Source: Candidatus Limimorpha sp.
GTDB lineage: Bacteria; Bacteroidota; Bacteroidia; Bacteroidales; F082
Direction: 5' to 3'
DNA length: 64,000 nucleotides
Assembly (NCBI GenBank): GCA_045120395.1
Contig: JBGVET010000026.1
Coordinates: 5,691-69,690, forward strand
Shown here one piece after another: positions 7,577 to 61,836 of this stretch (position 1 is the first letter of the stretch; every line of letters begins with the position of its first letter). The position numbers and the translations under genes were made by a program. The notes beneath the pieces were generated by a model, which was not told the DNA's origin, ran no database searches, and saw only the letters and a program-made list of their open reading frames with translations.

Positions 7577-7611
7577 TACGAATAATGAAATAATTATATA
7601 AAATAAAAGAT

Positions 7612-8211: not shown

Positions 8212-8233
8212 TTTTTGAACAATCAATTGGTAT

Positions 8234-9918: not shown

Positions 9919-9927
9919 AAGAAGTAT

Positions 9928-34343: not shown

Positions 34344-34410
34344 CGTTCGTTTTAAAAATAGTAAACATTTTTACTATATATTATTTTACTTAATAAAAAC
34401 AACAGAATCT

Positions 34411-35133: not shown

Positions 35134-35135
35134 TC

Positions 35136-36206: not shown

Positions 36207-36267
36207 AGCCTGAAAGGCTTAAATATATATAACGGATGGCATCGCCATACGGCTAACACATGCAACT

Positions 36268-37281
36268 ATGAAAGACCATAAAATACTCATCATCGGCGCA
36301 GGTCCTGCAGGACTAGAGACAGCTCATCAGCTGAAAAGCCTCGGACTCACTCCTATCATCATCGAGAGAAGCGACAAGATAGGCGGACATCTTGCACAAT
36401 GGGATAGACTTTTCCCTTCAAGCGACAATGCCGAAGAGCTTCTCGAAAGATTAAAAGAACAAGTGAAAGACGTCGAGATTAAGTTAAATTCTCGTATCAG
36501 TAATATAGAAAAAGAAGGCGATATATTCCATGTAACGCTTTCTAACAACAAGACTTACGACGTATCAGCAGTCGTCGTCTGCACAGGCTTCGACCTTTTC
36601 AAAGCAGAGAAGAAACAAGAATACGGCTACGGCATTTACAATAATGTCATCACCAATGCCGAATTAGAAAAATATTTCAAGACACATCAGGACGAACGCA
36701 TCGACGAGCCAAAACGCATCGGCTTTGTGCATTGCGTAGGTTCGAGAGACGTGAAAGTCAACAACACTTATTGTTCTAAAGTTTGTTGCGCTACAGCTTT
36801 GAAGCAAGCCTGCGAGATAAAAGACGAATTCCCTGATGCCGATGTCTATTGTTTCTATATGGACTTACGTATGTTCGGCAAAGGCTACGAAGACCTTTAT
36901 CTCAAGGCACAGAAAGACTTCGACATCAAATGTGTGAGAGGACGCGTCTGTGAGGTGTCAGAAAACATCGAAGGCAAACTCGTCATCAAGGCTGAAGACA
37001 CTTTACTAGGAACACCGATGAAAATGACTTTGGATTTATTGGTGCTGATGTGCGGCATGGAGAAATCCGAAGGCGTTGAGAGAATACAGAACATGCTCAA
37101 CATCAAGAGTAACAGCGACGGTTTCATCGAGAGCCGCGACATCTTCACTGGCTTGAACCTCACCAAAGAAAGAGGCGTCTTCGTGGCAGGAGCTTGCACC
37201 TCACCAAAGACATTGCCAGAGACATTGGCAGAAGCACGCTCCGCCGCAGTGGAAGTGTTTCAATATTTAGTTAGGAGTTAG
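36268..37281 (+). CDS. FAD-dependent oxidoreductase, HdrA-like
   Basis: ILIIGAGPAGLETA dinucleotide fold; YCSKVCCATALKQA as in HdrA-type proteins. Confidence 0.7.
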   Translation: MKDHKILIIGAGPAGLETAHQLKSLGLTPIIIERSDKIGGHLAQWDRLFPSSDNAEELLERLKEQVKDVEIKLNSRISNIEKEGDIFHVTLSNNKTYDVSAVVVCTGFDLFKAEKKQEYGYGIYNNVITNAELEKYFKTHQDERIDEPKRIGFVHCVGSRDVKVNNTYCSKVCCATALKQACEIKDEFPDADVYCFYMDLRMFGKGYEDLYLKAQKDFDIKCVRGRVCEVSENIEGKLVIKAEDTLLGTPMKMTLDLLVLMCGMEKSEGVERIQNMLNIKSNSDGFIESRDIFTGLNLTKERGVFVAGACTSPKTLPETLAEARSAAVEVFQYLVRS

Positions 37282-39949: not shown

Positions 39950-41248
39950 TTAGTTCTTAACAATTCGGCTTGTTCTAAATCCGTAAACGAATATCACGAC
40001 GAAGCAGATGAATGGAAGTATGAATGAGAAGTTCACTGCCGGGAGACTTCCCACTGTTCCGAGGTCGATAATCATGCCTTGAAGTGGTGGCATCAACGCG
40101 CCGCCGACGATAGCCATGACTAAGAATGCTGCGCCTAATGAGCTGTCTTCTATGCTGACATTTTCCAATGCTATACCGTAAATCGTTGGGAACATAAGCG
40201 ACATGAAGACTGAAATAGCCATCAAGCAGTAAAGTCCCATAACGCCGTCAATCAAAATTGTTCCTGCAGTAGCAAGCATCGCTCCGATGGCGAAGAACAT
40301 TAACAACTTACGAGAGTTGACATATTTCATCAAGAAGGTGCTGATGAAACGACCGCATAAGAACATTCCCATCGCGATGATATTATACAATTGAGCAGTA
40401 GCTTTGTCGATGCCAAGACGATCAGCATACTGTATGATGAAAGTCCATGTCATGATTTGAGCTGCCACGTAGAACAACTGAGTGATGACGCCTTCTCGAT
40501 ATACCTTATTAGAGAAAAGACGCTTTAATGTGCCTTTGTTATTAGTATTTTCTTTTGTTTCATTATTTTGATTTTTCACAAAAATAGCGATGATGACGAA
40601 GACGAACAGCACCACGCAACCTAATGCGACGTACGGATTACGGATGATATCGAGGTCGTGTTCGCGTATTGAGAGTTTTGTCATCTCGTCTAAGTTACTG
40701 AAGCCCACCTCGCGCACTGCTGCTGTATCGGATTCAAGTTTAGCGAGTACTATTCTTGAAGCGACGAACATACCCATAAGAGAACCGATTGGGTTGAAAG
40801 CCTGAGCGAGGTTGAGGCGACGTGTTGAAGTCTCTTTGCTACCTAACAACAAGATATAAGGGTTAGCTGTTGTTTCGAGGAAAGCAAGTCCGAAGGTGAG
40901 GACGTACAACGATACGCAGAAGAATCCGAACTCCTGACGGTTAGCGGCTGGGATAAACATAAACGCGCCGATAGCATAGAGGATGAGTCCGAGCAAGATA
41001 CCTTTTTTGTAGCTGTAACGTCTAGCGAAGAGAGCTGCAGGTATCGCCATCGTGGCATAGCCGCCATAGAAAGCGAATTGCACGAGAGATGCCTTTGCGG
41101 CTGACAGCTCCATGACTGTCTGGAATGCAGCGACCATAGGATTGGTGATGTCGTTAGCGAAGCCCCACAAGGCGAATAATGATGTTATCAAAATGAATGT
41201 CAAGAGATATTTCTTCTCGACGAGTTTCGATTGTAGATTTTGTGTCAT
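39950..41248 (-). CDS. fucP: L-fucose:H+ symporter-type MFS permease
   Basis: 12-TM MFS, 432 aa; N-terminal FILITSLFALWGFANDITNPMV typical of FucP/glucose-galactose transporters; fucose operon context. Confidence 0.75.
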   Translation of the reverse strand: MTQNLQSKLVEKKYLLTFILITSLFALWGFANDITNPMVAAFQTVMELSAAKASLVQFAFYGGYATMAIPAALFARRYSYKKGILLGLILYAIGAFMFIPAANRQEFGFFCVSLYVLTFGLAFLETTANPYILLLGSKETSTRRLNLAQAFNPIGSLMGMFVASRIVLAKLESDTAAVREVGFSNLDEMTKLSIREHDLDIIRNPYVALGCVVLFVFVIIAIFVKNQNNETKENTNNKGTLKRLFSNKVYREGVITQLFYVAAQIMTWTFIIQYADRLGIDKATAQLYNIIAMGMFLCGRFISTFLMKYVNSRKLLMFFAIGAMLATAGTILIDGVMGLYCLMAISVFMSLMFPTIYGIALENVSIEDSSLGAAFLVMAIVGGALMPPLQGMIIDLGTVGSLPAVNFSFILPFICFVVIFVYGFRTSRIVKN

Positions 41249-41367
41249 ATTTTTTTTACTTTGAACCTTGAACTATGAATTATGAGTTGTGAGCTACAGC
41301 TACTAAATTAATTTCCACAAAGATAGTAAAAGGCTAAAGTCTAATGACAAAAGGCTAAAGATTTTTT

Positions 41368-44807: not shown

Positions 44808-46217
44808 CTAACTCCTAACTCCTAACTGAACTAAGATATTTCCCATCGCTGTGGCTTCCACTTCGCCTCTTATCACCTCACATCCTGTGTGTTCTGCGGT
44901 GAGTTTGTTCAGCAGTTGGTTTCTTGAACCGCCGCCAACGATGTAAATCTTGTTTATCTTCTTGTTTGTGCAACGTTCCATCTGTGTCTTCACCTCAGCA
45001 TATTTCTTAGCTAATGAGATACAGATACATCTCATGAAGTCACCTTTGGTAACAGGGAGTTCTTCATTATTTTCTTTGAGAAATGAAACAATCGCTTCCG
45101 ACATCTTTTCTGGATTCATGAAACGAGCGTCATCTACATCGAATGATGATGATAATGTTGACTGCTCAGCTTCTTTCACTAATTCTGAATAGTCGCATTT
45201 GTAGCCTTCGCTTTCCCACTCTTTGACGAGCTGTTGTATGAGCCAGAGTCCTGTTATGTTTTTGAGGAAACGTATCCTTCCGTCTGTCATGCCTTCATTG
45301 GTGAAGTCGGATTCGAGGGCTTCTTTTGATATGATTGGTTCTTTTGTCGGTGTTCCCATGAGCGACCATGTACCGGAGCTGATGAAAGCCCAGTCGTCAT
45401 TGGTGTCGCTGATGGATGCGACGGCACTCGCGGTGTCGTGCGAGCCGACAGCGACGACATTGAGGTTGCCACCCACTTCTTCGGCGAGCTCATCGCTGAG
45501 TCGTCCTATCACAGTGCCAGGATAAATGATTTCCTGCATCAAGTGTTTTGGCAATCCTAATCTTTCAAAGATGACATCGTCCCACTGATGTGTCAGCAAG
45601 CTCATCAACTGCGATGTCGATGCAATGGTGAATTCGTTATAACATTTTCCTGTGAGGAAATAGTTGAACAAATCTGGCATGAATAATAGCCTTTTAGCTC
45701 GTATGACGTCGTCATCAATGGTGCCTGAGCTTGTCGAAGACTCCTGTGGTTTCGACGAGCTCAACCACCGCATACTCAATAATTGAAACGCTGTGTTTAT
45801 CTCCATAAACTGATTAGCAGCATGTTGGAAAAATTCTTCCTTTGGCAACTTTTGAAATGCTAATTCTAACATTCCTTTGGTTCTGTCGTCGCGGTAACAT
45901 ATTGGAGTGGAAATTAATTTTCCATCTTTATCCAAAAGGCCATAATCAACGCCCCAGGTGTCGATGCCGATGCTTTCGATTTCGTTGCCGTATTTGGCAA
46001 AAGCTTTCTTCAAACCAATTTTAAGTTCATTGAAAAGAGCCTCGAAATCCCAACGCAGATGACCGTCAATCATCTTTTGATTATTCTCGAAACGATGTAT
46101 TTCTTCTAATTGTATAGACGCAATATTTTGTTGAGACGCAATATTTTGCGTCTCTACGGTTCCAACGATGACACGACCGCTGCCAGCACCGAAGTCTGCT
46201 GCTAAAAATCTTTTCAT
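44808..46217 (-). CDS. fucK: FGGY-family kinase, L-fuculokinase/rhamnulokinase type
   Basis: MKRFLAADFGAGSGRVIVG, GIDTWGVDYGLL, IYIVGGGSRNQLLNKL; operon with fucI/fucA; in-frame palindrome insertion near the N-terminus. Confidence 0.75.
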   Translation of the reverse strand: MKRFLAADFGAGSGRVIVGTVETQNIASQQNIASIQLEEIHRFENNQKMIDGHLRWDFEALFNELKIGLKKAFAKYGNEIESIGIDTWGVDYGLLDKDGKLISTPICYRDDRTKGMLELAFQKLPKEEFFQHAANQFMEINTAFQLLSMRWLSSSKPQESSTSSGTIDDDVIRAKRLLFMPDLFNYFLTGKCYNEFTIASTSQLMSLLTHQWDDVIFERLGLPKHLMQEIIYPGTVIGRLSDELAEEVGGNLNVVAVGSHDTASAVASISDTNDDWAFISSGTWSLMGTPTKEPIISKEALESDFTNEGMTDGRIRFLKNITGLWLIQQLVKEWESEGYKCDYSELVKEAEQSTLSSSFDVDDARFMNPEKMSEAIVSFLKENNEELPVTKGDFMRCICISLAKKYAEVKTQMERCTNKKINKIYIVGGGSRNQLLNKLTAEHTGCEVIRGEVEATAMGNILVQLGVRS

Positions 46218-46218
46218 A

Positions 46219-46863
46219 TTATTTTTTCTTTCCTAAAACGTAAACGTCTAAATCTTCAATCTCTTCTTGTGTCAAGGTTGAATAATTGCCGCCTGACTGT
46301 ACTATTATTCTGCAAGCCATCTCGAAGAATGTAGCGCGTTCGAAGACCTCGTCGAAGCTCTTGCCGCATACCACCTGACCATGGTTTGTCATGAGACATG
46401 AGTTGTGGTCTTTCATCGCTTCAAGAACAGCCTTTGCCAATTCTGGAGAACCTGGTCTGTAATAAGGAATCACTGGAATCTCTCTTCCGACATGGATTGG
46501 AATCTCAGCTGTGACGTTGAAGTTTGTTGGTTTCTCTTTCATGCAAGCTATCGCTGTGGCGTATTCTGACTGGAAATGGAACACCACATTGACTTCAGGA
46601 CGCTGACGCATGATTCCGAGGTGGAATGTGCTTTCCATTGAAGGCTTCACGCCATTGAGAAATTCGCCAGTCTCGATATTGCAGAGAGAGATGTTTTCTT
46701 CTTTTAAGGTAGGAACCCATGATCCTGTTCCTGAAACGAGAGCGAGGTTGTCATCGATACGCCATGAGAGATTGCCGCTGCTGCATAAAGTCAACTTAGC
46801 ATCACCATAACGATGAGCCTGTTTCAAGAATTCTGTATAATGTTTTTCGTCTATGATACTCAT
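46219..46863 (-). CDS. fucA: class II aldolase, L-fuculose-phosphate aldolase type
   Basis: ATG at 46863 (MSIIDEKHY) preferred; SSGNLSWR, SMESTFHLGI, HFQSEYATA metal/His motifs. Confidence 0.75.
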   Translation of the reverse strand: MSIIDEKHYTEFLKQAHRYGDAKLTLCSSGNLSWRIDDNLALVSGTGSWVPTLKEENISLCNIETGEFLNGVKPSMESTFHLGIMRQRPEVNVVFHFQSEYATAIACMKEKPTNFNVTAEIPIHVGREIPVIPYYRPGSPELAKAVLEAMKDHNSCLMTNHGQVVCGKSFDEVFERATFFEMACRIIVQSGGNYSTLTQEEIEDLDVYVLGKKK

Positions 46864-46921
46864 GATTGTTTTTTTAGTCAACGGACTACAGACAACAGTC
46901 AACAGTCCCTAATTATTAAAA

Positions 46922-46972
46922 TGAGACGCATCAATGTGTTTTTATTTTTTTGTTACATTGATACGTCTCTAC
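46922..46972. repeat. palindromic element (copy P3, reverse orientation)
   Basis: GAGACGCATCAATGT ... ACATTGATACGTCTCTAC. Confidence 0.7.
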
Positions 46973-46983
46973 GATATTGTCAA

Positions 46984-48777
46984 TTATTTATACATTGGTC
47001 CGAAGTTAGCGCAAGCTCTGAAGTCTTGACCTTCTTTATCCATGCCGAAGGCGTTCCATACTGAAGGACGGAAGATTTTTTCTTCTGGCACGTTGTGCAT
47101 TGATACAGGGATGCGTAACATTGAGCATAATGTGATGAGGTCAGCGCCGATGTGACCATAGCTGATAGCTCCGTGGTTTGCGCCCCAGTTGTTCATCACT
47201 TCGTAAGCTGTTGTGAAAGCGCCTTTACCTGTTGTGCGTGGTGCGAACCATGTGCAAGGCCATGTGTAGTCAGTGCGTTTCCATAATGTGTCTGACACTT
47301 TTTCTGGGAGGTTGACAGTCCAGCCTTCAGCTATTTGGATGCATGGTCCGAGGCCTTTGACGAGGTTGAGACGAATCATTGTGACAGGCATTTCTGCTTT
47401 TGTCTCAAAGCGTGATGAGTAACCGCCACCACGGAAGTAACCGTAGTCAGCAGAGCACCATTCTGTGGCGTTCATCATTGCGTCTTGGTCAGCTTCTGTT
47501 ACATCCCACCATTGTTTCATTACGTTGTTACCGTTTTCATCTTTGCAAACGCCAGAAGCGTCAACGCAGCAAGCACCTGAATTAATAAGGTGAATGATAC
47601 CGCCTGATTGTTGAGCTACGCCTTCTAAGTCGTAACCTGTTGCGCCTTTCACTGCTTCAGGACTCCAGTAAGTACGAACGTCGGCGAACATCTGTGGACG
47701 ATTTGTCAACAGTTTCATGAATAACATGCCTATGCCGTTAAGGACGTCGTTTTCTGTTGCGAGGATATAAGGCTCACGTGCGCCGTTCCAGTCGAATGAT
47801 GAGTTGAGCATTGACTCAGCGAAGTCGCCGTTTGGATAGAAGTCGGTCCATTGACGTTGACCTTGGAAGCCAGCAGCGATGGCGTTGTGACCTACCATTT
47901 CTTCTTCGCAGCCTTCAGGGAGGTTAGGGTTGCCGTTCATCATGTCTTTGATGATGACCATCATCTTAACGACGAATTCCCACATCTCTTCTTTCTCAGC
48001 AGCTGTCTTCTTAAGATATTCTGGGTTTTTATCGAGACCTTCTATGCATTTAGCTTTAGTCCAAGCGAGAGCTTTTTCGTATTCGTTCTTATCGTATATT
48101 CCGTTAGTCATGCGGCGGATGATTTCCACTTCGTCGACAGACTCGACGCGCATTCCGAGATATTCTTCGATGAAGTTAGGGTCGATGATTGAGCCACCGA
48201 TACCCATACAGATAGAACCAATTTGGAGGTATGACTTTCCACGCATTGAAGCTGCAGCGACGGCAGCGCGAGCGAAGCGTAAGAGTTTCTCTTGTACGTC
48301 AGCTGGGATTGTAGTGTCGTCAGCGTTTTGTACGTCATGACCATAGATACCGAAAGCTGGCAAACCTTTTTGAGCATGTGTTGCTAAAACTGATGCGAGA
48401 TATACAGCACCTGGACGTTCTGTTCCGTTGAAACCCCAGACGCCTTTGATTGTCATTGGATCCATGTCCATTGTCTCAGCGCCGTAGCACCAGCAAGGAG
48501 TGACAGTAAGAGTGATGTCGACGCCTTCTTTTCTGAATTTGTCGGCACAAGCAGCGGCTTCTGCAACGCGACCTATTGTAGTGTCAGCTATGACGACTTT
48601 AACAGGTTCTCCGTTAGAATATTTCAAGTTATCTGTGAAAAGCTTAGCAGCAGCTTTTGCCATATTCATTGTTTGATCTTCAAGAGATTCGCGTACTTTA
48701 AGAGCACCACGACGGCCGTCGATGGTTGGGCGGATTCCGATGACAGGATAATCGCCTATGAGTCTGTTTTTTGCCAT
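46984..48777 (-). CDS. fucI: L-fucose isomerase
   Basis: 597 aa; [24 protein letters not shown]-terminus and overall length typical of FucI. Confidence 0.9.
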
Positions 48778-52020: not shown

Positions 52021-52971
52021 ATGAGCGAAAATTTAGAAAGAGTACAATGTCTTATCCTCGGCTCAGGTCCTGCAGGATACACAACAGCGATTTATACATG
52101 TCGTGCTGACCTCAAAACTGTCATCTACGAAGGTCCTATCACAGGCGGTCAGTTGATGCAGACAACAGAAATTGAGAACTTCCCTGGTTACCCACAAGGC
52201 GTACACGGCGGACAAATGATGCAAGACATCCGTCAACAAGCTGAACGTTTCGGCGTTGAGTTCCGCATGGGTTCTATCGTTGAAGTCGACACAACATCAC
52301 GTCCTTTCAGAGTAAAATCAGAGACAGGCGATGAATTGTTAGCAGACACTATCGTTGTTGCTACAGGCGCATCAGCACGTTGGTTAGGCGTTAAAGGTGA
52401 AGAGCAATTCAAAGGCGGCGGCGTTTCAGCATGCGCTACATGCGATGGTTTCTTCTTCAAAGGCAGAGACGTTGCTGTTGTTGGCGGCGGCGACACAGCT
52501 TGCGAAGACGCTACATACCTCTCACACCTCTGCAACAAAGTTTATTTGATTGTACGTCGTGACGTTCTCCGCGCTTCTAAAGCTATGCAACACAGAGTTC
52601 TCAACACACCTAACATCGAAGTCCTTTGGAACACACAAACAAAAGAATTATTCGGCGAATCAGAAGGCTTCATGGCAACATTACAAGGCGCAGTTGTCGT
52701 CAATAGCGTAACAAACGAAGAACGCACTCTCAACATCGACGGTTTCTTCGAAGCAATCGGCAACACACCTAACACAGCTATCTTCAAAGATAAACTCGAA
52801 ATGGACGAAGCTGGTTACATCATCACAAAACCTAAATCAACAGCAACAAGCGTTCCTGGTATCTTCGCAGCAGGCGACTGCCAAGACAGATTGTTCCGTC
52901 AAGCTATCATCGCTGCAGGTTCAGGTGCAACAGCTGGTATGGAAGTTGAAAGATTCCTCATGGAGAATTAA
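52021..52971 (+). CDS. trxB: thioredoxin-disulfide reductase
   Basis: ILGSGPAGYTTAIY (FAD), ACATCDGFFF (redox CxxC), VVGGGDTACEDA (NADPH), AAGDCQD. Confidence 0.95.
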   Translation: MSENLERVQCLILGSGPAGYTTAIYTCRADLKTVIYEGPITGGQLMQTTEIENFPGYPQGVHGGQMMQDIRQQAERFGVEFRMGSIVEVDTTSRPFRVKSETGDELLADTIVVATGASARWLGVKGEEQFKGGGVSACATCDGFFFKGRDVAVVGGGDTACEDATYLSHLCNKVYLIVRRDVLRASKAMQHRVLNTPNIEVLWNTQTKELFGESEGFMATLQGAVVVNSVTNEERTLNIDGFFEAIGNTPNTAIFKDKLEMDEAGYIITKPKSTATSVPGIFAAGDCQDRLFRQAIIAAGSGATAGMEVERFLMEN

Positions 52972-52982
52972 GAATTTACAAT

Positions 52983-53034
52983 GTAGAGACGTATCAATGA
53001 TTCCTGCAATATAAATACACATTGATGCGTCTTT
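52983..53034. repeat. palindromic element (copy P4, forward)
   Basis: GTAGAGACGTATCAATG ... CATTGATGCGTCT. Confidence 0.7.
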
Positions 53035-53068
53035 TTAATTGACAGTTGACAATTAACAATTTACAATT

Positions 53069-53102
53069 AGAGGTCGGGGAATTTTTTCCGACCTCTTTTT
53101 AT
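53069..53102 (+). terminator. rho-independent terminator
   Basis: AGAGGTCGG (53069-53077) / CCGACCTCT (53088-53096) then T-run; near-duplicate at 59024-59054. Confidence 0.65.
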
Positions 53103-53513
53103 TTATATGGATTATAAATTGTATACCTTACATCCTTTCCAAGTTCCATGCGGGAACAACCTCTATTTTTAAACCATCATGCTCTGTTGTTCTGTTTTGA
53201 TTGAATGTAATAATTTTACATTCTTTACATTTGGTAACATTAGACGCAGCAACTAAGCCTTCTATCTCTCGTTTTCCTTCTTATAAGGAAAAGAATCATA
53301 ACTTTTTTCCTTATAAAAAGGAAATTCATAACCCCATACTCCATCAATTATGCATTATGAATTATGCATTGTTAATTGTGTCTTATTTAGGGACAGTTTT
53401 ATGGCTTATTTAGGGATAGTGTAAGTTGTTGATAAATAGGAAAAATGGATAATATTGCATATCCACTACTATTGAAGAGATAACAAACGAAAAATTCATA
53501 AAATAAATACGTC

Positions 53514-54530
53514 ATGAAGAAAGAATATTTCTACTATCTCCTTATCACATTGGCTTTTGTGATAATGGCAACATTCAACGCCTGCAAGCCAGAACCAGAA
53601 CCACAAACTCCGGGAAGTGTTAAGGTAACCACAAGTTCCGTTTCTAATATCACAGAGACGAGTGCCAAATGCGGCGGCACGGTGACAGCTTCCGGTTATT
53701 CTGTAGGAAATTGCGGACTATGCTATAGCGAGTTACCTAATCCTACTGTAAGTTCGTATATAACATCAGACCAAGTAGGAACTGGAACCTTCACCTCCAC
53801 TATGAGCGGCTTGGAACCAGGAACAAAATATTACGTGAGAGCATACGCCACCACAAGCTCCGGAACATTATACGGAGAACAAAAAGAATTTACGACTTTA
53901 GGAGATGACAACGGTGGTGGAAATGGAGGAGGAAACGGAGATGATGATGACGAGCCGACCACTGGAACAATTAACGGACACGAATGGGTTGACCTCGGTT
54001 TGCCATCAGGTTTGAAATGGGCAACATGCAATGTAGGAGCGGATTCTCCAGAAGATTATGGTAACTATTACGCTTGGGGCGAGACAACGACAAAATCGAC
54101 TTACACAGAAGATAATAGTCTTACCTACGGACTTAATGAGTCGCAGCTGCAATCGCAAGGCTATATAGACGGAAGTGGCAATCTCACTCCATCACATGAT
54201 GCTGCCACAGCCAATTGGGGCGGAAGCTGGAGGATGCCTACAAAATTAGAAATGGAAGAATTGATTCTTAATTGTTCATGGAAACTTATCAATCAGAATG
54301 GTATTTATGGTTGTCTGTTAACAGGATCTAACGGATCATCAATATTCCTTCCAGCTGCTGGACTAATATATAATTCATCGTCAGATCATGTAGGAAAAGT
54401 TGGGAGATACTATGGTTCTACACCAAGTGATGACAGTGCATATACAATTAATTTCGGTCAAAATTTGGGTTGTTATGTTGATGATTATATACGTTATTGG
54501 GGGAAAAGCATCCGTCCTGTCTCAAATTGA
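53514..54530 (+). CDS. lipoprotein, N-terminal Ig/FN3-like module + Gly/Asp linker + DUF1566/Fib_succ_major-like C-terminal domain
   Basis: Lipobox TFNAC; GHEWVDLGLPSGLKWATCNVGA, YYAWGE, GSWRMPTKLEMEEL; paralog of 56619-57644. Confidence 0.65.
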   Translation: MKKEYFYYLLITLAFVIMATFNACKPEPEPQTPGSVKVTTSSVSNITETSAKCGGTVTASGYSVGNCGLCYSELPNPTVSSYITSDQVGTGTFTSTMSGLEPGTKYYVRAYATTSSGTLYGEQKEFTTLGDDNGGGNGGGNGDDDDEPTTGTINGHEWVDLGLPSGLKWATCNVGADSPEDYGNYYAWGETTTKSTYTEDNSLTYGLNESQLQSQGYIDGSGNLTPSHDAATANWGGSWRMPTKLEMEELILNCSWKLINQNGIYGCLLTGSNGSSIFLPAAGLIYNSSSDHVGKVGRYYGSTPSDDSAYTINFGQNLGCYVDDYIRYWGKSIRPVSN

Positions 54531-54569
54531 TTATAGTCAATTAAATATTAAAATAAACAAATAAAAATC

Positions 54570-54962
54570 ATGAAAAAATTAAAATTCGTTTTGATGGTAG
54601 TATTATGTCTCTCACTATCATCTTGTAGTCCCGAGTTTTGGGGAGCCTTGTTGATAGGCTTAACCACTCCGACATACAACAGCTATTCTTCGTATAGCAG
54701 CTACTCGACCACCCCATCATATTCCTCATCAAGCAGTTCGTATTCTGGTTCTACATATTCTTCTGGTTCTTCTTCGAGTTCATCATCAAGCAGTAGTAAC
54801 AAAGGACAAAGAACATGTAGCCAGTGTAATGGTACCGGTCAAGTGATAAAGAGTACAACTGGTTTCGGCAATAGAAAATGGTGCAGCATCTGCGGAAAGG
54901 AAGTCGCAGACAGCCACTATCACGGAACATGTCCTGGCTGCAAGGGAACAGGAAAATGGTAA
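54570..54962 (+). CDS. lipoprotein with Ser-rich linker and CxxCxGxG zinc-finger pair
   Basis: Lipobox LSLSSC; SSSSSYSGSTYSSGSSSSSSSSSS; CSQCNGTGQV and CPGCKGTGKW. Confidence 0.55.
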   Translation: MKKLKFVLMVVLCLSLSSCSPEFWGALLIGLTTPTYNSYSSYSSYSTTPSYSSSSSSYSGSTYSSGSSSSSSSSSSNKGQRTCSQCNGTGQVIKSTTGFGNRKWCSICGKEVADSHYHGTCPGCKGTGKW

Positions 54963-54996
54963 TTTAGAATTATAAACAGAATTAAAATAACACATT

Positions 54997-55530
54997 ATGA
55001 AAAAGACATTATTAATTTTAGCGATGGTTGTAACTTGCATGACAACTTCTTGCAAGAAGGACAACAATGACAATAACAACTTATCTAACGGTACTGATGA
55101 AGAACAATATACCGTTAATCCTACAATTGAAGCTAATTCTTCTTTTCTTTTCGGGACAACTTGGGAACATGATAAAAAGGAAGAATATGACGAAAAAGGA
55201 AAATTAGAAAGTACAGGAACTAGTTATATTGATTTCACATTAACATTTACTTCAGAACTACTCAAAGATAATTGTTATGTATTAGATATAAATGAATCTT
55301 ATGTTCCAGGGATGTACACCTGGTGGCATGTTGATGAAAATGGTTTATTAACATATTTTGCAGATGGATATGCCACTTATCTCGGTTATAGTGGAGTACA
55401 AGTCGGTCGATGGCTGGCCTCAGGCGGTTTTGTACATGAAGCAACGATTATAAAAAAAGCAGATAAATTAATTCTAAAAATGAATTATGATAGCGGCGGG
55501 TATACACTGCATTACTACACTCAAAAATAA
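54997..55530 (+). CDS. hypothetical lipoprotein
   Basis: MKKTLLILAMVVTCMTTSC signal/lipobox shared with neighbours. Confidence 0.55.
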   Translation: MKKTLLILAMVVTCMTTSCKKDNNDNNNLSNGTDEEQYTVNPTIEANSSFLFGTTWEHDKKEEYDEKGKLESTGTSYIDFTLTFTSELLKDNCYVLDINESYVPGMYTWWHVDENGLLTYFADGYATYLGYSGVQVGRWLASGGFVHEATIIKKADKLILKMNYDSGGYTLHYYTQK

Positions 55531-55595
55531 TAACAAGCTATGATAGGTTTATAATAGCAATGTTTAATAACAACATAACATCAACAAATTAAATT

Positions 55596-56189
55596 ATGAA
55601 AAAGACATTTATCAAATTATTCAGCATTTTTGCTATTGTGGCATTATTGGTTTCTTGTAATAAGGATGATGAAAACTATAATTATCAAACTCCAACAGAA
55701 CAAGGTGATAACAATGACAATAACAATAATAATGATGAAGAAGATAATATTCATCAAATAGTATCACAAAATGTTCGTGTAAATGTTAACTACCAGGATT
55801 ATGCATGGAGAATTTCAGGTACAACATCTTTAAGTTCTGTATTGAATGGGCAAGAAATAAAATATAAAATACAATGCGGATATTATATCGATGACAATCT
55901 ATCTTTTCAAGAATATTATATTGATAATATAACTTATAGTATCGATCATTTAGCACCTGTATTTCAACCTGGAATAGGCGATTTTATAGAACTTGCATTT
56001 TATTGGAGGTCATATTTAGCATTGATTGAAGAGCCTGAATTATCCCAATCAGAACAAGATTTGTATGACTCCATAATAGATCTGTTTGAAGATTATGAAT
56101 ACGAAGCCAAGTATAATTACTGGGGACGTTTTGTAGTAGAAATTGATGGTATTGATTATATCGTTAAAAAATTTGGATTAGAATTATAA
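55596..56189 (+). CDS. hypothetical lipoprotein
   Basis: Lipobox ALLVSC; Asn/Asp-rich linker. Confidence 0.55.
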   Translation: MKKTFIKLFSIFAIVALLVSCNKDDENYNYQTPTEQGDNNDNNNNNDEEDNIHQIVSQNVRVNVNYQDYAWRISGTTSLSSVLNGQEIKYKIQCGYYIDDNLSFQEYYIDNITYSIDHLAPVFQPGIGDFIELAFYWRSYLALIEEPELSQSEQDLYDSIIDLFEDYEYEAKYNYWGRFVVEIDGIDYIVKKFGLEL

Positions 56190-56210
56190 ACAGAATTAAA
56201 ATAACACATT

Positions 56211-56564
56211 ATGAAAAAGACATTATTGATTTTAACTATGGTTATTAGCTGTATGCTGACTTCTTGCAATAAGGACAATAATAATGAATCAAGCAATCCT
56301 TTTGTAGGCATATGGAAGCACTGTGACGACGACAAGATGGAATTCAAGGAAAATGGAGAATTTATTCTAATTTATAATTATTATTCAAATAATCCATCGA
56401 TGAAAAAAGGAAGTTATGCTTATAATAGTCAAACAAGCACCCTTTCTTTATCATACGACTCTGGATATACCCAATTAGCAATAGTACAATCTTGTAGCTA
56501 TGATAAAATTGTATATTATGATGCTGACGATCTGTATACATATACATTAATACGAGTTGAGTAA
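56211..56564 (+). CDS. small lipoprotein (lipocalin-like, tentative)
   Basis: MKKTLLILTMVISCMLTSC; FVGIWKH motif. Confidence 0.5.
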   Translation: MKKTLLILTMVISCMLTSCNKDNNNESSNPFVGIWKHCDDDKMEFKENGEFILIYNYYSNNPSMKKGSYAYNSQTSTLSLSYDSGYTQLAIVQSCSYDKIVYYDADDLYTYTLIRVE

Positions 56565-56618
56565 TAAATAGACATCTATAATTTTTAATATCAAGTATAA
56601 TTAAACTCAATTCAAATC

Positions 56619-57644
56619 ATGAAAAAGACATTATTAATTTTGGCAGTGATTGTAACATCAATGATGTTCTCCTGTAATCCTGAAAAAGATGAAAACAATA
56701 ACGTTTTGGTGACGACTGGTTCCGTGTCTGACATAACAGAGACGAGTGCGAAATGCGGCGGCACGGTGACTGCATCAGGTTATTCTGTAGGAAGTTGCGG
56801 ATTATGTTATAGCGAAACTCCTAATCCTACTGTAAGTTCTTACATAACATCTGACCAAGTAGGAACTGGAACCTTCACCTCCACTATAAGTGGCTTGGAA
56901 CCAGGCACAAAATATTACGTTAGAGCATACGCCAATGCAGGATCTGAAATATTCTACGGAGATCAGAAAGAATTTACGACTTTAGGAGATGACAATGACG
57001 GTGATGATGACAATGATGATAATGGTGGCGGAAACGGAGGTGACGATAATGGCGGTGGTGATGAACCCACAACTGGAACAATTAACGGCCACGAATGGGT
57101 TGACATTGGTTTGCCATCAGGTTTGAAATGGGCGACATATAACGTAGGCGCATCTTCAAAAGAAGATTATGGTGATTATTTTGCATGGGGCGAGACTGAG
57201 ACAAAGTCTACTTATACAGATAGTAATAGTATTACCTACGAAGTAGAAATGAGTAACATAAGTGGTAATTCACAATACGATGCTGCCACAGCCAACTGGG
57301 GCAGTACATGGAGAATGCCGACAGAACAAGAGATGAATGAATTGGTTGACAATTGTAAATGGGAATGGACACAGGTAAATGGAGTTAACGGCTCAAAGAT
57401 TATAGGACCAAACGGTAACTTTATTTTCCTTCCAGCTGCGGGCAACCGTGACGGTTCATCGCTCTACGAAGACGGAGTGGAAGGTAGCTATTGGAGTTCC
57501 ACGCCATTCAATGATGAGTCTGCAACTTTTCATCATAGAGTAGCATTCAACCTCGTCTTTGACAATAGTTTTGCGTTTGTGACTATAAATAACATGAGCT
57601 GTGCTCGCTACTGTGGTCAGCCTGTTCGTCCTGTCTCAGAATAA
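56619..57644 (+). CDS. lipoprotein, paralog of 53514-54530
   Basis: ~90% nucleotide identity by eye over the N-terminal module; same GHEWVD.GLPSGLKWAT and WRMPT..EM.EL motifs. Confidence 0.65.
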   Translation: MKKTLLILAVIVTSMMFSCNPEKDENNNVLVTTGSVSDITETSAKCGGTVTASGYSVGSCGLCYSETPNPTVSSYITSDQVGTGTFTSTISGLEPGTKYYVRAYANAGSEIFYGDQKEFTTLGDDNDGDDDNDDNGGGNGGDDNGGGDEPTTGTINGHEWVDIGLPSGLKWATYNVGASSKEDYGDYFAWGETETKSTYTDSNSITYEVEMSNISGNSQYDAATANWGSTWRMPTEQEMNELVDNCKWEWTQVNGVNGSKIIGPNGNFIFLPAAGNRDGSSLYEDGVEGSYWSSTPFNDESATFHHRVAFNLVFDNSFAFVTINNMSCARYCGQPVRPVSE

Positions 57645-57911
57645 GGCAAAGTAGAGTTTTAAAAATAATACATTATAACTTGTATAAATAAACATTAAAA
57701 TAAATAAGGGGACATCTATAAATTGCTTTGCAAATGATTTGTGAATATTTATTGAGAAGATTTTTATATGTCTTGAGAGAGCATGGCGGGTTATGCGATT
57801 AAGAGAAAGACGAAAAGACTCCGATAAAAAATATAAAACATGCAAAAGTTTTTACTATCACGGTCAAAACATATTAAAACGAGGAGTTTATAGAGGTCCC
57901 CATCAATAACA

Positions 57912-58475
57912 ATGAAACGATATATATTACTGATATCATTTGTGATAAGCTATCTTATAACTTCAGCTCAATATACAGAGAATAAGAATTCAGAAATAGA
58001 TCCAGGTTATTTTTCTCACTGAGGATTTGAATATACAGCCTGATTTAAAGCTGCAGGTTATGGAAGTTATTCTTACAATATTCAAGTCATTGGACTGTCA
58101 GGTTTTGGTGCGGAATGGGGTATGGGTGCAAACTTTGGATTAATTGACTCAGATTTTTCAGGAGTTTTTTTCAGAGCTGGTGCTGTATATGGATATGCAT
58201 TCTCGGATTTTGCTATGCTTTCAACATCTTTTGGATTTGATGGTAGCTATCACGGGACTGGAACATATATTAGTTATGAGCAAGCTTCGTCGGGTAATTA
58301 TTATCCTATTACTCGTAGTGGAAATATGAAATTTGACTGGGGACTTTCCTTAAAATCACAGATAATATTAAAAGCTGGAAAGATATTACCTCATGCAGGT
58401 TTGACATTTAGTTGGTCAAAGATTACAAGTAGGATAGGGATAGGCTTTGTTGTTGGAATAGGTTTTACTTTATGA
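57912..58475 (+). pseudogene. small outer-membrane beta-barrel (porin-family-like) gene with two in-frame TGA codons
   Basis: Signal peptide MKRYILLISFVISYLITSAQ; TGA at 58020-58022 and 58041-58043 in the frame that continues into ORF 58122-58475; alternating aromatic/Gly beta-strand pattern. Confidence 0.55.
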
Positions 58476-58655
58476 GTTAAGTATAGCCATAGTCAGAAGA
58501 GTTCAAAAAAGAAGTTAATTTTACTTTGTCGTACGACAATTGTCATTTTTTCATTAACTTTGCTTCGTTAACATTTAAAAATAATTTTATAGAAAAGAAG
58601 TAAGAAAAATAAAAATATAACATATTATAAACATAGCGTTTAAAGCATTTTCTTT

Positions 58656-58771
58656 GATTACTCGAAATCGCCAAATTTCAAATTTTCCACAAAGAAAGCA
58701 TGAACGCTTGCGGGTTATATCCGTGAGCTTTCTTGTTTGTGGAAATAGGTTTTGGCGAGCCTTGAGTAATC
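58656..58771. repeat. ~116-nt imperfect hairpin upstream of HTH gene
   Basis: Arm GATTACTCGAAATCGCCAAA...TTTTCCACAAAGAAAGC (58656-58699) vs GCTTTCTTGTTTGTGGAAA...TTTGGCGAGCCTTGAGTAATC (58727-58771). Confidence 0.6.
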
Positions 58772-58793
58772 AACAAGTACTCACGGTTTTTTT

Positions 58794-59018
58794 ATGCAGT
58801 CCGAAATTATAGATATACATATAGGAAAACTGATACGTCAGAAACTCAGGGAGCAGGGCAGAACGGTGACATGGTTCGCTGCTCAGATTCCATGTACCCG
58901 GAAACATGCATATAGAATCTTCAACAATCCCAATATCAACACGGAGCTTCTGATAAGGATAAATGAAATATTAGGATGTAATTTCTTTGAATATTATATT
59001 TGCCTAGATTACAATTAA
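58794..59018 (+). CDS. small XRE-type helix-turn-helix protein
   Basis: IGKLIRQKLREQGRTVTWFAAQIPCTRKHAYRIFNNPNINTELLIRINEIL. Confidence 0.55.
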   Translation: MQSEIIDIHIGKLIRQKLREQGRTVTWFAAQIPCTRKHAYRIFNNPNINTELLIRINEILGCNFFEYYICLDYN

Positions 59019-59023
59019 TAATT

Positions 59024-59054
59024 AGAGGTCGGAAATTTTCAGACCTCTTTTTTA
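59024..59054 (+). terminator. rho-independent terminator (near-duplicate of 53069-53102)
   Basis: AGAGGTC (59024-59030) / GACCTCT (59042-59048) + T-run. Confidence 0.6.
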
Positions 59055-59138
59055 TTACTTATAAGTCTAGCCCTAAAATATCGTTACAACAAAAAACTAT
59101 ATCATCATTTTTTTATATAAAACTTTTCATTATATTTT

Positions 59139-59684
59139 ATGTCATCTGACAAAATATATAAAGGTCATTTATACGAAGAACTGGAAAAAGATTATCGTAT
59201 AAAAGAAGGTTTGAAAGCATGCATGAACTGCGGTGTTTGCACTGCTGAACGTTTCGGCGTTGAGTTCCGCATGGGTTCTATCGTTGAAGTCGACACAACA
59301 TCACGTCCTTTCAGAGTAAAATCAGAGACAGGCGATGAGTTGTTAGCAGACACTATCGTTGTTGCTACAGGCGCATCAGCACGTTGGTTAGGCATTAAAG
59401 GCGAAGACCAATTCAAAGGCGGCGGCGTTTCAGCTTGCGCTACATGCAACGGTTTCTTCGAAGCAATCGGCAACACACCTAACACAGCTATCTTCAAAGA
59501 TAAACTCGAAATGGACGAAGCTGGTTACATCATCACAAAACCTAAATCAACAGCAACAAGCGTTCCTGGCATCTTCGCAGCAGGCGACTGCCAAGACAGA
59601 TTGTTCCGTCAAGCTATCATCGCTGCAGGTTCAGGCGCAACAGCTGGTATGGAAGTTGAAAGATTCCTCATGGAGAATGCATGA
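59139..59684 (+). CDS. chimeric ORF: HdrC-like N-terminus (36 aa) fused in frame to an internally deleted trxB copy; probable gene remnant
   Basis: 59139-59246 ~75% identical to 34411-34518; 59247-59459 and 59460-59678 nearly identical to trxB 52243-52455 and 52750-52968. Confidence 0.7.
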   Translation: MSSDKIYKGHLYEELEKDYRIKEGLKACMNCGVCTAERFGVEFRMGSIVEVDTTSRPFRVKSETGDELLADTIVVATGASARWLGIKGEDQFKGGGVSACATCNGFFEAIGNTPNTAIFKDKLEMDEAGYIITKPKSTATSVPGIFAAGDCQDRLFRQAIIAAGSGATAGMEVERFLMENA

Positions 59685-59800
59685 TAAAGTTTTGAGCAAT
59701 AAGCCTTGAGCTCTGAGCTAAAAATAGAAAAAAACGATGTCTTTATGAAGGCATCGTTTTTTTATTGTCAAAAATATTATTTTTGTCAAAAATTATAATT

Positions 59801-60910
59801 ATGAATAACTGGAATGAAATTGTAGATATTCTTTCTTCAAATATTACACTTGATATAAGTGAAGGTATCTATCAAAGAGAGATTGTTAACTGCTTAAGAA
59901 TGTTAGGTTGGAGAAGTAAAGAAGGAACTCTGAAAGAACAAGTTACTTTACATATTGGAAATAATAATTCAATTCGTCCAGATATTGTGCTTTATAAAGA
60001 TAATCAACCAGTACTTCCTATTGAAATTAAGCGACCTACAAACATAAGTTCCTCAAAAGAAGAAAAACAATTAATGTCATATATGCGCCAATTGAAATTA
60101 AATGTAGGTCTTTATATTGGTAATAATATTCAATTATATTACGATAATCCGTCTGACCTTGATTTGCCAGTTTGTGTTTTGAAAGCTGAATTTAAAGAAA
60201 ATGACAATAATGGCATTTATCTTTGTAAAATGTTAACATACGACACATTTTATCTAAATGATATAGAAGAAAATTGTAAAAAATTATATAAAAATATCAT
60301 AAGCCAGAATTGCTTACAAAATAAATTAAATGATTTTTTATCAATTGAAAATATCGACAATAACATTAAGGAATTGATAAAGAATAAATTTATCGCCGAA
60401 GGTTTTGATGAAGAAATATTAGAAAGTGAACTCAATAATTTCTCGATAGAAGTAAAATCAAATAAAACGATTTCCTATCATTCAAACACAAAAACTATTA
60501 CTGACATAAAACACAATCAAAACTATAACAATAATAGCAAAGAAAAATCACAGTTTTCTATAGACGGAGTAAATTATTGGGGTGTTGGGCCATTTGTTCA
60601 TCATGTAGTTAAGCAATATGTTACAGATCATCCAAATATAACCTTTGAAGAATTAAAAAATGTATTTCCACCACATCTTAGTCAAGGGAAAAATGGTGTT
60701 ATCATGACATTGTCATCTTTTGAAAAATTATTATTGAATCAGCCTGATTTGGAAAGGAGATTTTTCTATAAGAAAGATAGAATAATATTATTAAAAGATA
60801 ACACAGCTGTTGTCGTTTTTTCGCAATGGGGAAATTCGGGTTATATAAAACAATATTTTCAAGGTTTTCTTAAACATATTGAATCATTCTATAAAGTGTA
60901 TCAAAGATAA
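59801..60910 (+). CDS. PD-(D/E)xK nuclease-fold protein (HsdR-N-terminal-like domain) with uncharacterised C-terminal domain
   Basis: ATG 59801 preferred over TTG 59765; IRPDIVLYKDNQPVLPIEIKRP (D...E.K core). Confidence 0.5.
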   Translation: MNNWNEIVDILSSNITLDISEGIYQREIVNCLRMLGWRSKEGTLKEQVTLHIGNNNSIRPDIVLYKDNQPVLPIEIKRPTNISSSKEEKQLMSYMRQLKLNVGLYIGNNIQLYYDNPSDLDLPVCVLKAEFKENDNNGIYLCKMLTYDTFYLNDIEENCKKLYKNIISQNCLQNKLNDFLSIENIDNNIKELIKNKFIAEGFDEEILESELNNFSIEVKSNKTISYHSNTKTITDIKHNQNYNNNSKEKSQFSIDGVNYWGVGPFVHHVVKQYVTDHPNITFEELKNVFPPHLSQGKNGVIMTLSSFEKLLLNQPDLERRFFYKKDRIILLKDNTAVVVFSQWGNSGYIKQYFQGFLKHIESFYKVYQR

Positions 60911-61073
60911 AATCTTGTAAAGAATTTTATCCCTATCTAAATATGCAACTTTGAGGAAATTAAATTTCATCAAAGTTGTTTTTTTATAAAATTTCAACAA
61001 TCGTTATTTCTTAAAATATTTTAACTCAATGCTATTTAATTAGTTGTTATTTTTGCAATTCAGATATGGGATA

Positions 61074-61178
61074 AGCGCCGAAGGTGCGACAGTTCCCAGG
61101 CAGGTGATGAAGCACGCAGTGCGAAATCCCTGCAAACATTAACCAAGTAGAATCAAAGTCCTGAAAGGACGACAGAAA
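61074..61178 (+). repeat. REP-like element upstream of RAYT gene
   Basis: GCGCCGAAGGTGCGACAGTTCCCAGGCAGGTGATGAAGCACGCAGTGCGAAATCCCTGCAA...CTGAAAGGACGACAG. Confidence 0.7.
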
Positions 61179-61191
61179 AACCAAAATAAAT

Positions 61192-61647
61192 ATGGCAAGC
61201 GCATTAGTGAAAATAAACGTGCATATCATATTCCATGTAAAAAGCAATGGGATAAGAATGAGAGAAAATGACCTGAAAAGAATCTTCTCATATATCAGTG
61301 GAATCATAAACGGAATTGGTGGTGTTACAATGGATGTTGGAGGCGTTGTTGATCACGTTCATATAGTGGCATCGTTACCTAAAACGAAATCATTATCAGA
61401 TTTTGTGAAAATCATTAAATCAGACAGCAGCAGATGGATAAAATCCATTGATTCATATTATGACAAATTCGCATGGCAAGAAGGTTATGGCGCGTTCTCT
61501 GTTAGTCCGACCTTGCTTGACAAAACAATAAACTATGTCAAAAACCAATCAAATCATCATAAAACAATGTCATTCCGCGAAGAATATGAATCGTTTTTGA
61601 AAGCATACGGAATACAATATGATGAGAGATATGCTTTTGATGATTGA
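61192..61647 (+). CDS. IS200/IS605-type Y1 (HUH) transposase, REP-associated (RAYT-like)
   Basis: HUH motif DHVHIVASL; catalytic Tyr region FAWQEGYGAFSVS; YVKNQSNHH; flanked by inverted REP-like repeats. Confidence 0.8.
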   Translation: MASALVKINVHIIFHVKSNGIRMRENDLKRIFSYISGIINGIGGVTMDVGGVVDHVHIVASLPKTKSLSDFVKIIKSDSSRWIKSIDSYYDKFAWQEGYGAFSVSPTLLDKTINYVKNQSNHHKTMSFREEYESFLKAYGIQYDERYAFDD

Positions 61648-61649
61648 TA

Positions 61650-61752
61650 TTCTGTCGTACCTTCGGCACTCTGATTAATATTCGGTCTTTATTGCAGGCA
61701 TTCCGAGCTACGCTCTCCATACCTGCCTGGGGACTGTCGTTCCTTCGGAATT
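61650..61752 (-). repeat. REP-like element downstream of RAYT gene (inverted relative to 61074-61178 and 44658-44757)
   Basis: CTGTCGTACCTTCGGCACTC...ATTGCAGGCATTCCGAGCTACGCTCTCCATACCTGCCTGGGGACTGTCGTTCCTTCGGAAT. Confidence 0.8.
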
Positions 61753-61770
61753 TCTATAGTATCCTATTAT

Positions 61771-61836
61771 TTTTATTGCAGGGGTTCCGTGCTTCGCACT
61801 TCACCGCCTGACTATATACTGACGCCCATACTGGGC
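61771..61836 (-). repeat. second, degenerate REP-like unit
   Basis: TTTATTGCAGGGGTTCCGTGCTTCGCACTTCACCGCCTG parallels the ATTGCAGGCATTCCGAGC...CCTGCCTG core. Confidence 0.5.

Follow-up and report, generated by a model that had tools for sequence, protein, structure and literature searches.

An in-frame hdrC::trxB chimera in Candidatus Limimorpha, probably a junction pseudogene left where an island entered from another species

We analysed 64,000 nucleotides (nt) of a Candidatus Limimorpha sp. genome (hereafter the window; contig JBGVET010000026.1, positions 5691-69690, from GCA_045120395.1, a 53-contig assembly resembling a metagenome-assembled genome), in which an open reading frame (ORF) joins the start of an HdrC-like gene in frame to two pieces of the thioredoxin reductase gene trxB. 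In every strain the gene order runs from an intact trxB through a 6-8.5 kb island, a helix-turn-helix (HTH)-like ORF of 74 amino acids (aa) and a spacer to the chimera and a convergent gene for a peptidase of family S46. The chimera, its parent genes and its flanks lie at the following window positions, where G009 denotes a sister species and G173 another species of the same genus.

52021-52971, plus strand: intact trxB, low-Mr thioredoxin reductase of 316 aa, the left direct repeat
59139-59684, plus strand: chimeric hdrC::trxB ORF of 181 aa, reading frame open
59139-59245, plus strand: hdrC-derived start (hdrN), codons 1-36, identical to G173 hdrC at 107 of 107 nt
59244-59459, plus strand: trxB-derived segment 1 (trxB nt 220-435, aa 74-145, including CATC), placed by blastn and junction alignment
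59460-59684, plus strand: trxB-derived segment 2 (trxB nt 730-951, aa 244-316, including GIFAAGD), ending MENA-stop
59685-59731, plus strand: native trxB 3' flank behind the chimera, 47 nt, G009-like
61932-63998, minus strand: Peptidase S46 gene, the presumed ancestral right-hand neighbour of trxB
34411-37281, plus strand: resident hdrCBA-like operon, with Pfam Fer4 dicluster, CCG and Pyr_redox_2 domains

The chimera is composed of nt 1-107 of an hdrC-like gene followed by trxB nt 220-435 and trxB nt 730-951, and 145 of its 181 residues derive from TrxB. An earlier note on this DNA, made from the letters alone, had described the ORF at 59139-59684 with two in-frame junctions, and these are present as claimed. 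It had also related the start of the ORF to the HdrC-like gene at 34411, and blastn within the window recovered this match (59138-59245 versus 34410-34517); the two are indeed diverged, although at a measured 79.6% identity (22 mismatches in 108 nt) rather than the estimated ~75%. The view that this piece was not copied from the local gene is upheld by its full identity to hdrC of G173, compared to 88% for hdrC of a further same-genus species, G172, and 79.6% for the window's own hdrC. The resident hdrCBA, which is 78-84% identical to its counterparts in G009, G172, G173, G175 and G119 (82.5% to G173) and whose NCBIfam HdrC, HdrB and HdrA matches fall below the cut-offs, is by its sequence an ordinary orthologue and not the donor of the chimera's start. 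The two trxB-derived pieces match the intact copy at 96.8% (59244-59459 versus 52240-52455, 7 mismatches) and 99.1% (59449-59678 versus 52739-52968, 2 mismatches), making nine substitutions where the note had seen about ten. Segment 1 has 0-6 differences from conspecific trxB alleles, compared to 23-27 from G173 trxB.

The internal deletion of 294 nt is flanked in trxB by a 9-bp direct repeat, GGTTTCTTC, with copies at 52447-52455 and 52741-52749, just as the note had stated; a single copy is left at the deletion junction in the chimera (59451-59459), and the repeat lengthens to CGAYGGTTTCTTC if one mismatch is allowed. The 8-nt microhomology that the note had placed at the 5' junction, GCTGAACG, did not hold up: it is plain trxB sequence, and the real overlap is 2-4 nt. 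With hdrC of G173 or G172 as the partner (G173 reads ACTGCG and then GTT), the overlap between hdrC and trxB is GC, 2 nt, at 59244-59245, and it would reach 4 nt (GCTG) only with a donor carrying GCT. A third scar lies directly upstream of the chimera's ATG, where 82 nt of the hdrC 5' leader have been deleted. The note's two illegitimate recombination events thus stand as illegitimate or short-repeat junctions, but loss of the leader brings the number of deletion and fusion scars to three.

The note had asked for related strains to be compared, and the same junctions recur in independent assemblies. A protein cluster at 90% identity contains 13 members of the same 181-aa architecture from ENA and NCBI assemblies, built in different studies with several assemblers (SPAdes-type NODE, MEGAHIT-type k141 and scaffold records), and the chimera-bearing ENA contigs measure 193,888, 190,346 and 40,762 bp, plus several shorter ones. 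Every DNA locus fetched has all three junctions (hdrN::trxB, the 9-bp deletion and the 82-nt upstream deletion); at least eight loci of independent assembly show them, among them contigs 41-194 kb long. Neither alternative that the note had named was borne out: the recurrence of the junctions does not fit an assembly chimera, and no relative was found with a second, full-length trxB here. Across these assemblies the chimera is evidently real, species-wide and mostly open. A degenerate pattern for the junction, CGVCTAERFG, had no match in the JGI metagenome contigs or GTDB species genomes scanned, which shows, as far as this pattern reaches, that the fusion is absent from other species representatives.

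We compared the locus with its counterparts in relatives and found two layouts that together account for its parts. In the sister species G009, trxB (6833-7780) is directly followed by the S46 gene (7974-10037, minus strand), with neither island nor chimera. The chimera's 3' end and flank (59449-59731) are 95% identical over 283 nt to the end of trxB in G009, and the MENA-stop ending is shared by the chimera, G009 trxB and the trxB of loci L048 and L049, whereas the window's intact trxB ends MEN-stop and its 3' flank has no match to G009. Because the end and flank of the chimera are G009-like and the flank of the intact copy is not, the trxB part of the chimera appears to occupy the native 3' position of trxB. 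Locus L048 partly serves as an empty site: it has no island, and its trxB, 98% identical, keeps the MENA end, but an IS200-like gene and a different gene, rather than S46, lie downstream of it.

The second layout is that of G173, in which trxB is followed by an island, the HTH gene, a spacer and an intact hdrCBA, an arrangement unique among 150 genomes of the genus; in G172, G175 and G119, trxB is directly followed by hdrCBA. Compared in 60-nt steps, the intact trxB of the window is 77-93% identical to G173 over nt 1-900 and 95-100% over nt 901-1080, while its identity to G009, 82-98% over the first part, drops to 83% and then gives way to a stretch without homology. The change from G009 type to G173 type in the intact copy thus falls at nt ~900-945, and the G173 type persists through the 136-nt flank. 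The 82-nt leader is kept in G173 and in G172 and the JGI contig L023, and is missing at every chimera locus; the G173 spacer is homologous to the spacer between trxB and hdrC in G172. Since the leader is kept and the spacers are homologous, the hdrC piece would be native to G172/G173-type genomes and foreign here, and since G173 retains the leader, transfer would have run from the donor type to this species and not the reverse. No candidate donor in the window's own genome or among the first 40 relatives exceeded 82% identity; the donor type was found by tracing contig L023 into a family-wide search. The donor search that the note had recommended thereby led to a sequence in G173 that lies behind the same upstream HTH gene and spacer.

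The DNA between the intact trxB and the chimera divides as follows.

52921-53107, plus strand: left boundary of the putatively imported DNA, comprising the last ~50 nt of trxB (MEN-stop) and the 136-nt 3' flank, G173-type
53108-58793, plus strand: island cargo of this strain, with Lcl_C/fn3-like lipoproteins, small ORFs and an ORF at 58122-58475
58794-59018, plus strand: HTH-like 74-aa ORF, the conserved right island end, 94.6% aa identity in L019, L021, L022 and G173
59004-59138, plus strand: spacer from the donor HTH-hdrC intergenic region, with a hairpin at 59004-59070 and without the 82-nt leader

Both ends of the island are conserved. The left flank is 97.8% identical to G173 and 98.5-100% identical to other strains, and holds a terminator hairpin (53056-53100). 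At the right end, region 58788-59142 is 95% identical to G173, with 95-96% for the spacer, and the 74-aa ORF has no Pfam or NCBIfam match. The cargo between them varies by strain: locus L021 resembles the window, and L019 and L022 carry a radical S-adenosylmethionine (SAM)/Cxxx-repeat peptide cluster with TatA/TatC. The L019 and L022 cargo shares 94-97% identity with the island of G173, compared to 85-89% for the core flanks trxB and S46. The island encodes no integrase or transposase, and no circular form or replication function is evident in it. The cargo has further features of its own. The lipoproteins at 53514-54530 and 56619-57644 are paralogous and Lcl_C/fn3-like, with an N-terminal ~130 aa in common, and L021 and L022 hold different combinations of the same family. 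The cargo resembling a cluster for ribosomally synthesised and post-translationally modified peptides (L019:1737-7280, L022:4583-9277 and G173:C128) comprises a Cxxx-repeat radical-SAM target peptide (PF27846), a radical SAM/SPASM-type enzyme, several small ORFs and TatA/TatC. A pair of terminator-like hairpins (53056-53100 and 59011-59052, 82% identical over 45 nt) forms a short direct repeat that brackets the cargo.

Taken together, we consider the ORF to be probably a junction pseudogene left by interspecies insertion of the island. Relative to a G009-type locus, these comparisons show an insertion of donor-type DNA that runs from trxB nt ~900 to hdrC nt 107, with trxB nt 220 to ~900 (~690 nt) present on both sides of the island. 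In the sequence of events that we propose, trxB would originally have adjoined the convergent S46 gene directly, as in G009, and the donor would have had the order trxB, island, small HTH gene, spacer and hdrCBA, as in G173. A contiguous piece of donor DNA, beginning near trxB nt 900, spanning the island and ending at hdrC nt 107, would then have entered the recipient. Its left end would have recombined homologously inside the 3' end of trxB, and its right end would have been joined illegitimately, with hdrC nt 107 meeting recipient trxB nt 220 at GC(TG) microhomology. Duplication of trxB nt 220 to ~900 would follow from this pairing of a homologous left join with an illegitimate right join. 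The outcome would be a complete and working upstream trxB and a downstream copy at the native position, with its own stop and flank, headed by 36 hdrC codons. The junction, in which the 5' end of a downstream gene is joined to the 3' part of an upstream one, has the polarity of a circle closure or a tandem duplication, and we infer two possible routes, between which we are undecided. The donor segment may have been circularised by illegitimate recombination, entered trxB by a Campbell-type single crossover and then been homogenised; alternatively, one-sided homology-facilitated illegitimate recombination (HFIR) may have taken place, with the illegitimate end joining the sister chromosome copy. 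Later changes would include the 82-nt leader deletion, the 294-nt deletion by slippage or recombination between the 9-bp repeats, point mutations (e.g. D104N in CATCD in this strain) and occasional exchange with the trxB 7 kb upstream.

We then considered what the product of these events could do, with the intact trxB as the reference. The intact gene scores 375.8 bits on TIGR01292 (cut-off 343.45), aligns with Escherichia coli TrxR 1TDE at E = 1.6e-80 in near 1:1 numbering and shows a ratio of non-synonymous to synonymous substitution rates (dN/dS) of 0.02-0.05 against relatives in other species. The chimera reaches only 148.2 bits on TIGR01292, in two separate stretches, and falls short of the family; its Pfam coverage likewise consists of two fragments only. 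TrxB aa 1-73, which hold the FAD Rossmann unit with its GxGxxG motif (GSGPAG), are replaced by 36 hdrC residues, and aa 146-243, the NADPH domain with GGGDTA and the HRRD-type motif, are deleted along with Pfam PF00070. CATC is kept (as CATCN in this strain), and the loss of GSGPAG and of the NADPH motif agrees with what the earlier note had reported. The chimera has no Fer4 Pfam match, compared to Fer4_8/9/10 for the resident 240-aa gene, and instead of the two CX2CX2CX3C(P) motifs of HdrC it keeps C28, C31 and C34, three of the four cysteines of the first CX2CX2CX3CP. A remnant of this composition cannot act as a thioredoxin reductase or as HdrC, and it is most likely, from what its sequence retains, without useful expression or function. 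TAnnTTTG is the Bacteroidetes -7 promoter consensus, and the deleted 82-nt leader holds TACTTTTG, the sole match to it near hdrC in G173; the 82-nt deletion therefore likely removed the hdrC promoter box. A scan for sigma-70 promoters and terminators was uninformative for this phylum.

Changes private to the chimera point in the same direction. Among seven DNA sequences, four are non-synonymous (G9S, V86I, D104N and C151F) and two synonymous, and members known only as proteins add the private replacements G105C, A167T, M171R, S2A and K17Q. The residue after CATC is Asn in the window and in cluster members P0125, P0126 and P0129, and Asp in other strains; in P0123, the Gly after that Asp position is Cys. 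Since the trxB dN/dS of 0.02-0.05 together with two synonymous changes predicts fewer than one replacement, these private changes, small as their counts are, indicate relaxed constraint at the sequence level. In L022, a 1-nt insertion in an A-run truncates the ORF, and P0123 and P0129 are alleles of 153 aa with the same internal Met start, a pattern compatible with damage at the N-terminus (of these two, P0129, on L022, was the one read at the DNA level).

Contigs that diverge by 6-10% in their S46 genes agree at 97-99% over the chimera. In the window and in L022, both trxB copies carry the derived alleles at chimera nt 359, 441 and 444, and segment 1 is identical between both copies in L021; the L019 trxB has a G009-like segment 1 that the L019 chimera does not share. 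From these sites, the two trxB copies are seen to exchange sequence, staying 97-100% alike, and the high identity of the chimera to trxB is partly explained by this exchange. Conservation in the face of S46 divergence would be due to exchange with trxB and to recent spread. The S46 gene differs by 6-10% at the nt level between contigs L019, L021, L022 and L051-L053, compared to only 1-2.5% for the adjacent chimera locus, a contrast that would reflect either recent spread of the island and chimera through the species by recombination or an unusually variable S46. The trxB alleles are themselves cross-species mosaics: in L019 (1-817), segment 1 is G009-like (11 differences, versus 12-16 to conspecifics), and the L020 trxB has a G172-type patch at nt ~293-408. 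This mosaicism suggests frequent interspecies homologous recombination in trxB.

Several observations weigh against a junction pseudogene of interspecies origin and have to be set beside its competitors. The duplicated part of trxB carries no G173-like donor single-nucleotide polymorphisms (SNPs), even at the junction, which weakens Campbell integration in its simple form, with a circle of G173 type, unless the SNPs were erased by conversion or the trxB of the true donor resembled that of this species. Among sampled genomes, G173 is the donor's closest relative and no more than that, with an HTH-spacer identity of 95-96% and not 100%. Duplication of the target is not known to be the usual outcome of HFIR. 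The evidence for conversion consists of a few sites in metagenome consensus sequences, in which reads of both copies are possibly mixed. Finally, 11 of the 13 cluster members have an open ORF, and the frame is kept across both coding junctions, which would occur about 1 time in 9 by chance. One competitor is a purely intragenomic origin, in which an ancestor of this species with a trxB-island-hdrCBA layout would have undergone tandem duplication from trxB nt 220 to hdrC nt 107 with hdrCBA moving away later, and no interspecies transfer would have taken place. The junction of a downstream 5' end with an upstream 3' part is of the classic tandem-duplication type, the two trxB copies both belong to the species' own type, and trxB and hdrCBA lie 0.3-26 kb apart in many members of the genus in a heavily rearranged region. 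We nevertheless regard this origin as very unlikely, because hdrN is fully identical to G173 hdrC and far from the species' own normal orthologue, the island ends and cargo are 94-100% G173-like against 85-89% for the core flanks, and the chimera is followed by a G009-type flank and S46 with no second copy of the island or of hdrC. Least credible of all is an assembly chimera between trxB copies or co-occurring strains. Such an artefact might be suspected in a 53-contig MAG-like assembly, and short low-coverage recombinant contigs that may be graph cross-overs do exist (L020 at 1.3x, L023 and L050), but the identical junctions recur across studies and assemblers, junction repeats of 2-13 nt lie far below the assembler k-mer and make de Bruijn mis-joins impossible, and the chimeric copy has private substitutions and a distinct 3' end of its own.

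The open frame and the two in-frame junctions also speak for a functional neo-gene, whose product might for instance be a Cys-rich redox protein of small size (CxxCxxC plus CATC) or a fragment able to bind, or to disturb the action of, the TrxR dimer or thioredoxin, as do retention of CATC and GIFAAGD and conservation of the locus beside a divergent S46. The earlier note had left the choice between neo-ORF and pseudogene open; of its two options the evidence favours the pseudogene, and we think a neo-gene unlikely, given that private changes are mostly non-synonymous and fall at residues conserved in the TrxR compared (D104N, G105C), that the N-terminus is missing from two alleles of 153 aa and a frameshift is present in at least one allele (L022), that loss of the first FAD Rossmann beta-alpha-beta unit and nearly the whole NADPH domain makes a stable fold doubtful, that the probable promoter box is gone and that exchange with trxB and recent spread account for the conservation. 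A handful of recombinant contigs bears on a further reading. L020 (ERZ2227431 NODE_9049; 1,040 bp, 1.3x) joins hdrN and an undeleted trxB 3' part to the island-side flank; L023 (JGI 3300041678; 1,585 bp) joins hdrN and an undeleted trxB 3' part to a G172-type spacer and hdrC, and is a three-part mosaic of the chimera 5' end, this species' trxB to ~nt 640 and G172-type trxB-hdrC; and L050 (ERZ27297452 k141_112464), like P0130, joins the trxB 5' part to the 294-nt-deleted copy beside S46. These are either real recombination products of the direct repeats or graph cross-overs between paralogues or co-occurring species. We did not take L023 and L020 to demonstrate an intermediate without the deletion, given the mosaic structure of the one, the 1.3x coverage of the other and the possibility of cross-overs. 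We entertain only tentatively, as a rather improbable extension, that the trxB/trxB' repeats and the HTH-spacer-hdrN arm form a standing recombination cassette, with the island repeatedly excised, re-integrated and swapped across strains and species. If this were true, crossover in segment 2 would restore a clean trxB, crossover in segment 1 would leave a 294-nt-deleted trxB and thus a knockout, and L020, L023, L050 and P0130 would be real circle, duplication or excision products.

The surroundings of the locus are also rearranged, both between strains and between species. In this strain, one further feature separates the chimera from S46:

59765-61647, plus strand: strain-specific insert between the chimera and S46, two genes, both with Pfam matches

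Its first gene is a 381-aa HSDR_N/PD-(D/E)XK-like ORF (59765-60910) and its second an IS200/Y1 transposase-like gene (61192-61647). The insert (region 59765-61781) is missing in L019, L021, L022 and L051-L053, where S46 lies ~120-185 nt past the chimera, and the IS200-like unit recurs at 97% directly after trxB in L048 (2210-3033). On a larger scale, a comparison of block order between window 34297-64000 and G009:C63, G172:C11 and G173:C128 finds hdrCBA, 39968-41249, 44827-48777 (fucose genes), trxB and S46 permuted or inverted across species of the genus, and trxB and hdrCBA, adjacent in G172, G175 and G119, are 18-26 kb apart in the window and in G009.

If the ORF is a junction pseudogene of island insertion, it would offer a natural example of a non-mobile island crossing a species boundary in uncultured gut- or rumen-type Bacteroidales-like bacteria, and with donor-type and recipient-type layouts both still sampled its course can be retraced at single-base resolution. 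It would also illustrate that in-frame chimeric ORFs can be by-products of such insertions, and that they can retain a young appearance through exchange with the parent gene. Such remnants get annotated as genes across many assemblies, here as a 13-member protein cluster, and for annotation we suggest that this ORF be flagged as a trxB/hdrC remnant and not as a reductase.

Among known processes, the proposed insertion parallels HFIR during uptake of foreign DNA, as summarised for Acinetobacter, S. pneumoniae and P. stutzeri (PMC6382021) and invoked to explain displaced genes (PMC5361080). As in HFIR, one end is anchored by homology, in the trxB 3' end, where the identity switch at nt ~900-945 runs on through the 136-nt flank, the other is joined at tiny microhomology (hdrC nt 107 to trxB nt 220), and kilobases of foreign DNA are inserted beside the anchor. 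In contrast to HFIR, the recipient target here is duplicated (~690 nt) and not deleted, and the overlap, known here from sequence alone, is 2 nt with the nearest donor, or 4 nt if the true donor had GCT, compared to the 3-10 bp quoted for HFIR (PMC6382021). The layout of an intact gene, an insert and a truncated second copy as a direct repeat also recalls the merodiploid produced by Campbell-type integration, in which the closure point of the circle would be the new fusion (hdrN::trxB') and the insert could be lost by recombination between the repeats. However, the island shows no circular form, replication function or integrase, the donor SNPs expected in one copy are not seen, and the circle itself would require illegitimate recombination in the donor. 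Orphan 3' fragments of rearrangement hotspot (Rhs), contact-dependent inhibition (CDI) and type VI secretion (T6SS) loci (PMC5361080) arise comparably, with incoming DNA recombining in a conserved gene and the old 3' part displaced downstream, although those toxin-immunity modules are thought to be retained for immunity, whereas the piece here is a housekeeping redox fragment with no evident benefit. Compared to TrxB itself (TIGR01292, 1TDE), the chimera keeps CATC and the C-terminal GD FAD motif but lacks the GxGxxG FAD fold and the NADPH domain, and the catalytic-acid Asp beside CATC is Asn here. The chimera belongs to a known kind, that of gene remnants at recombination junctions, and its value lies in an unusually complete reconstruction.

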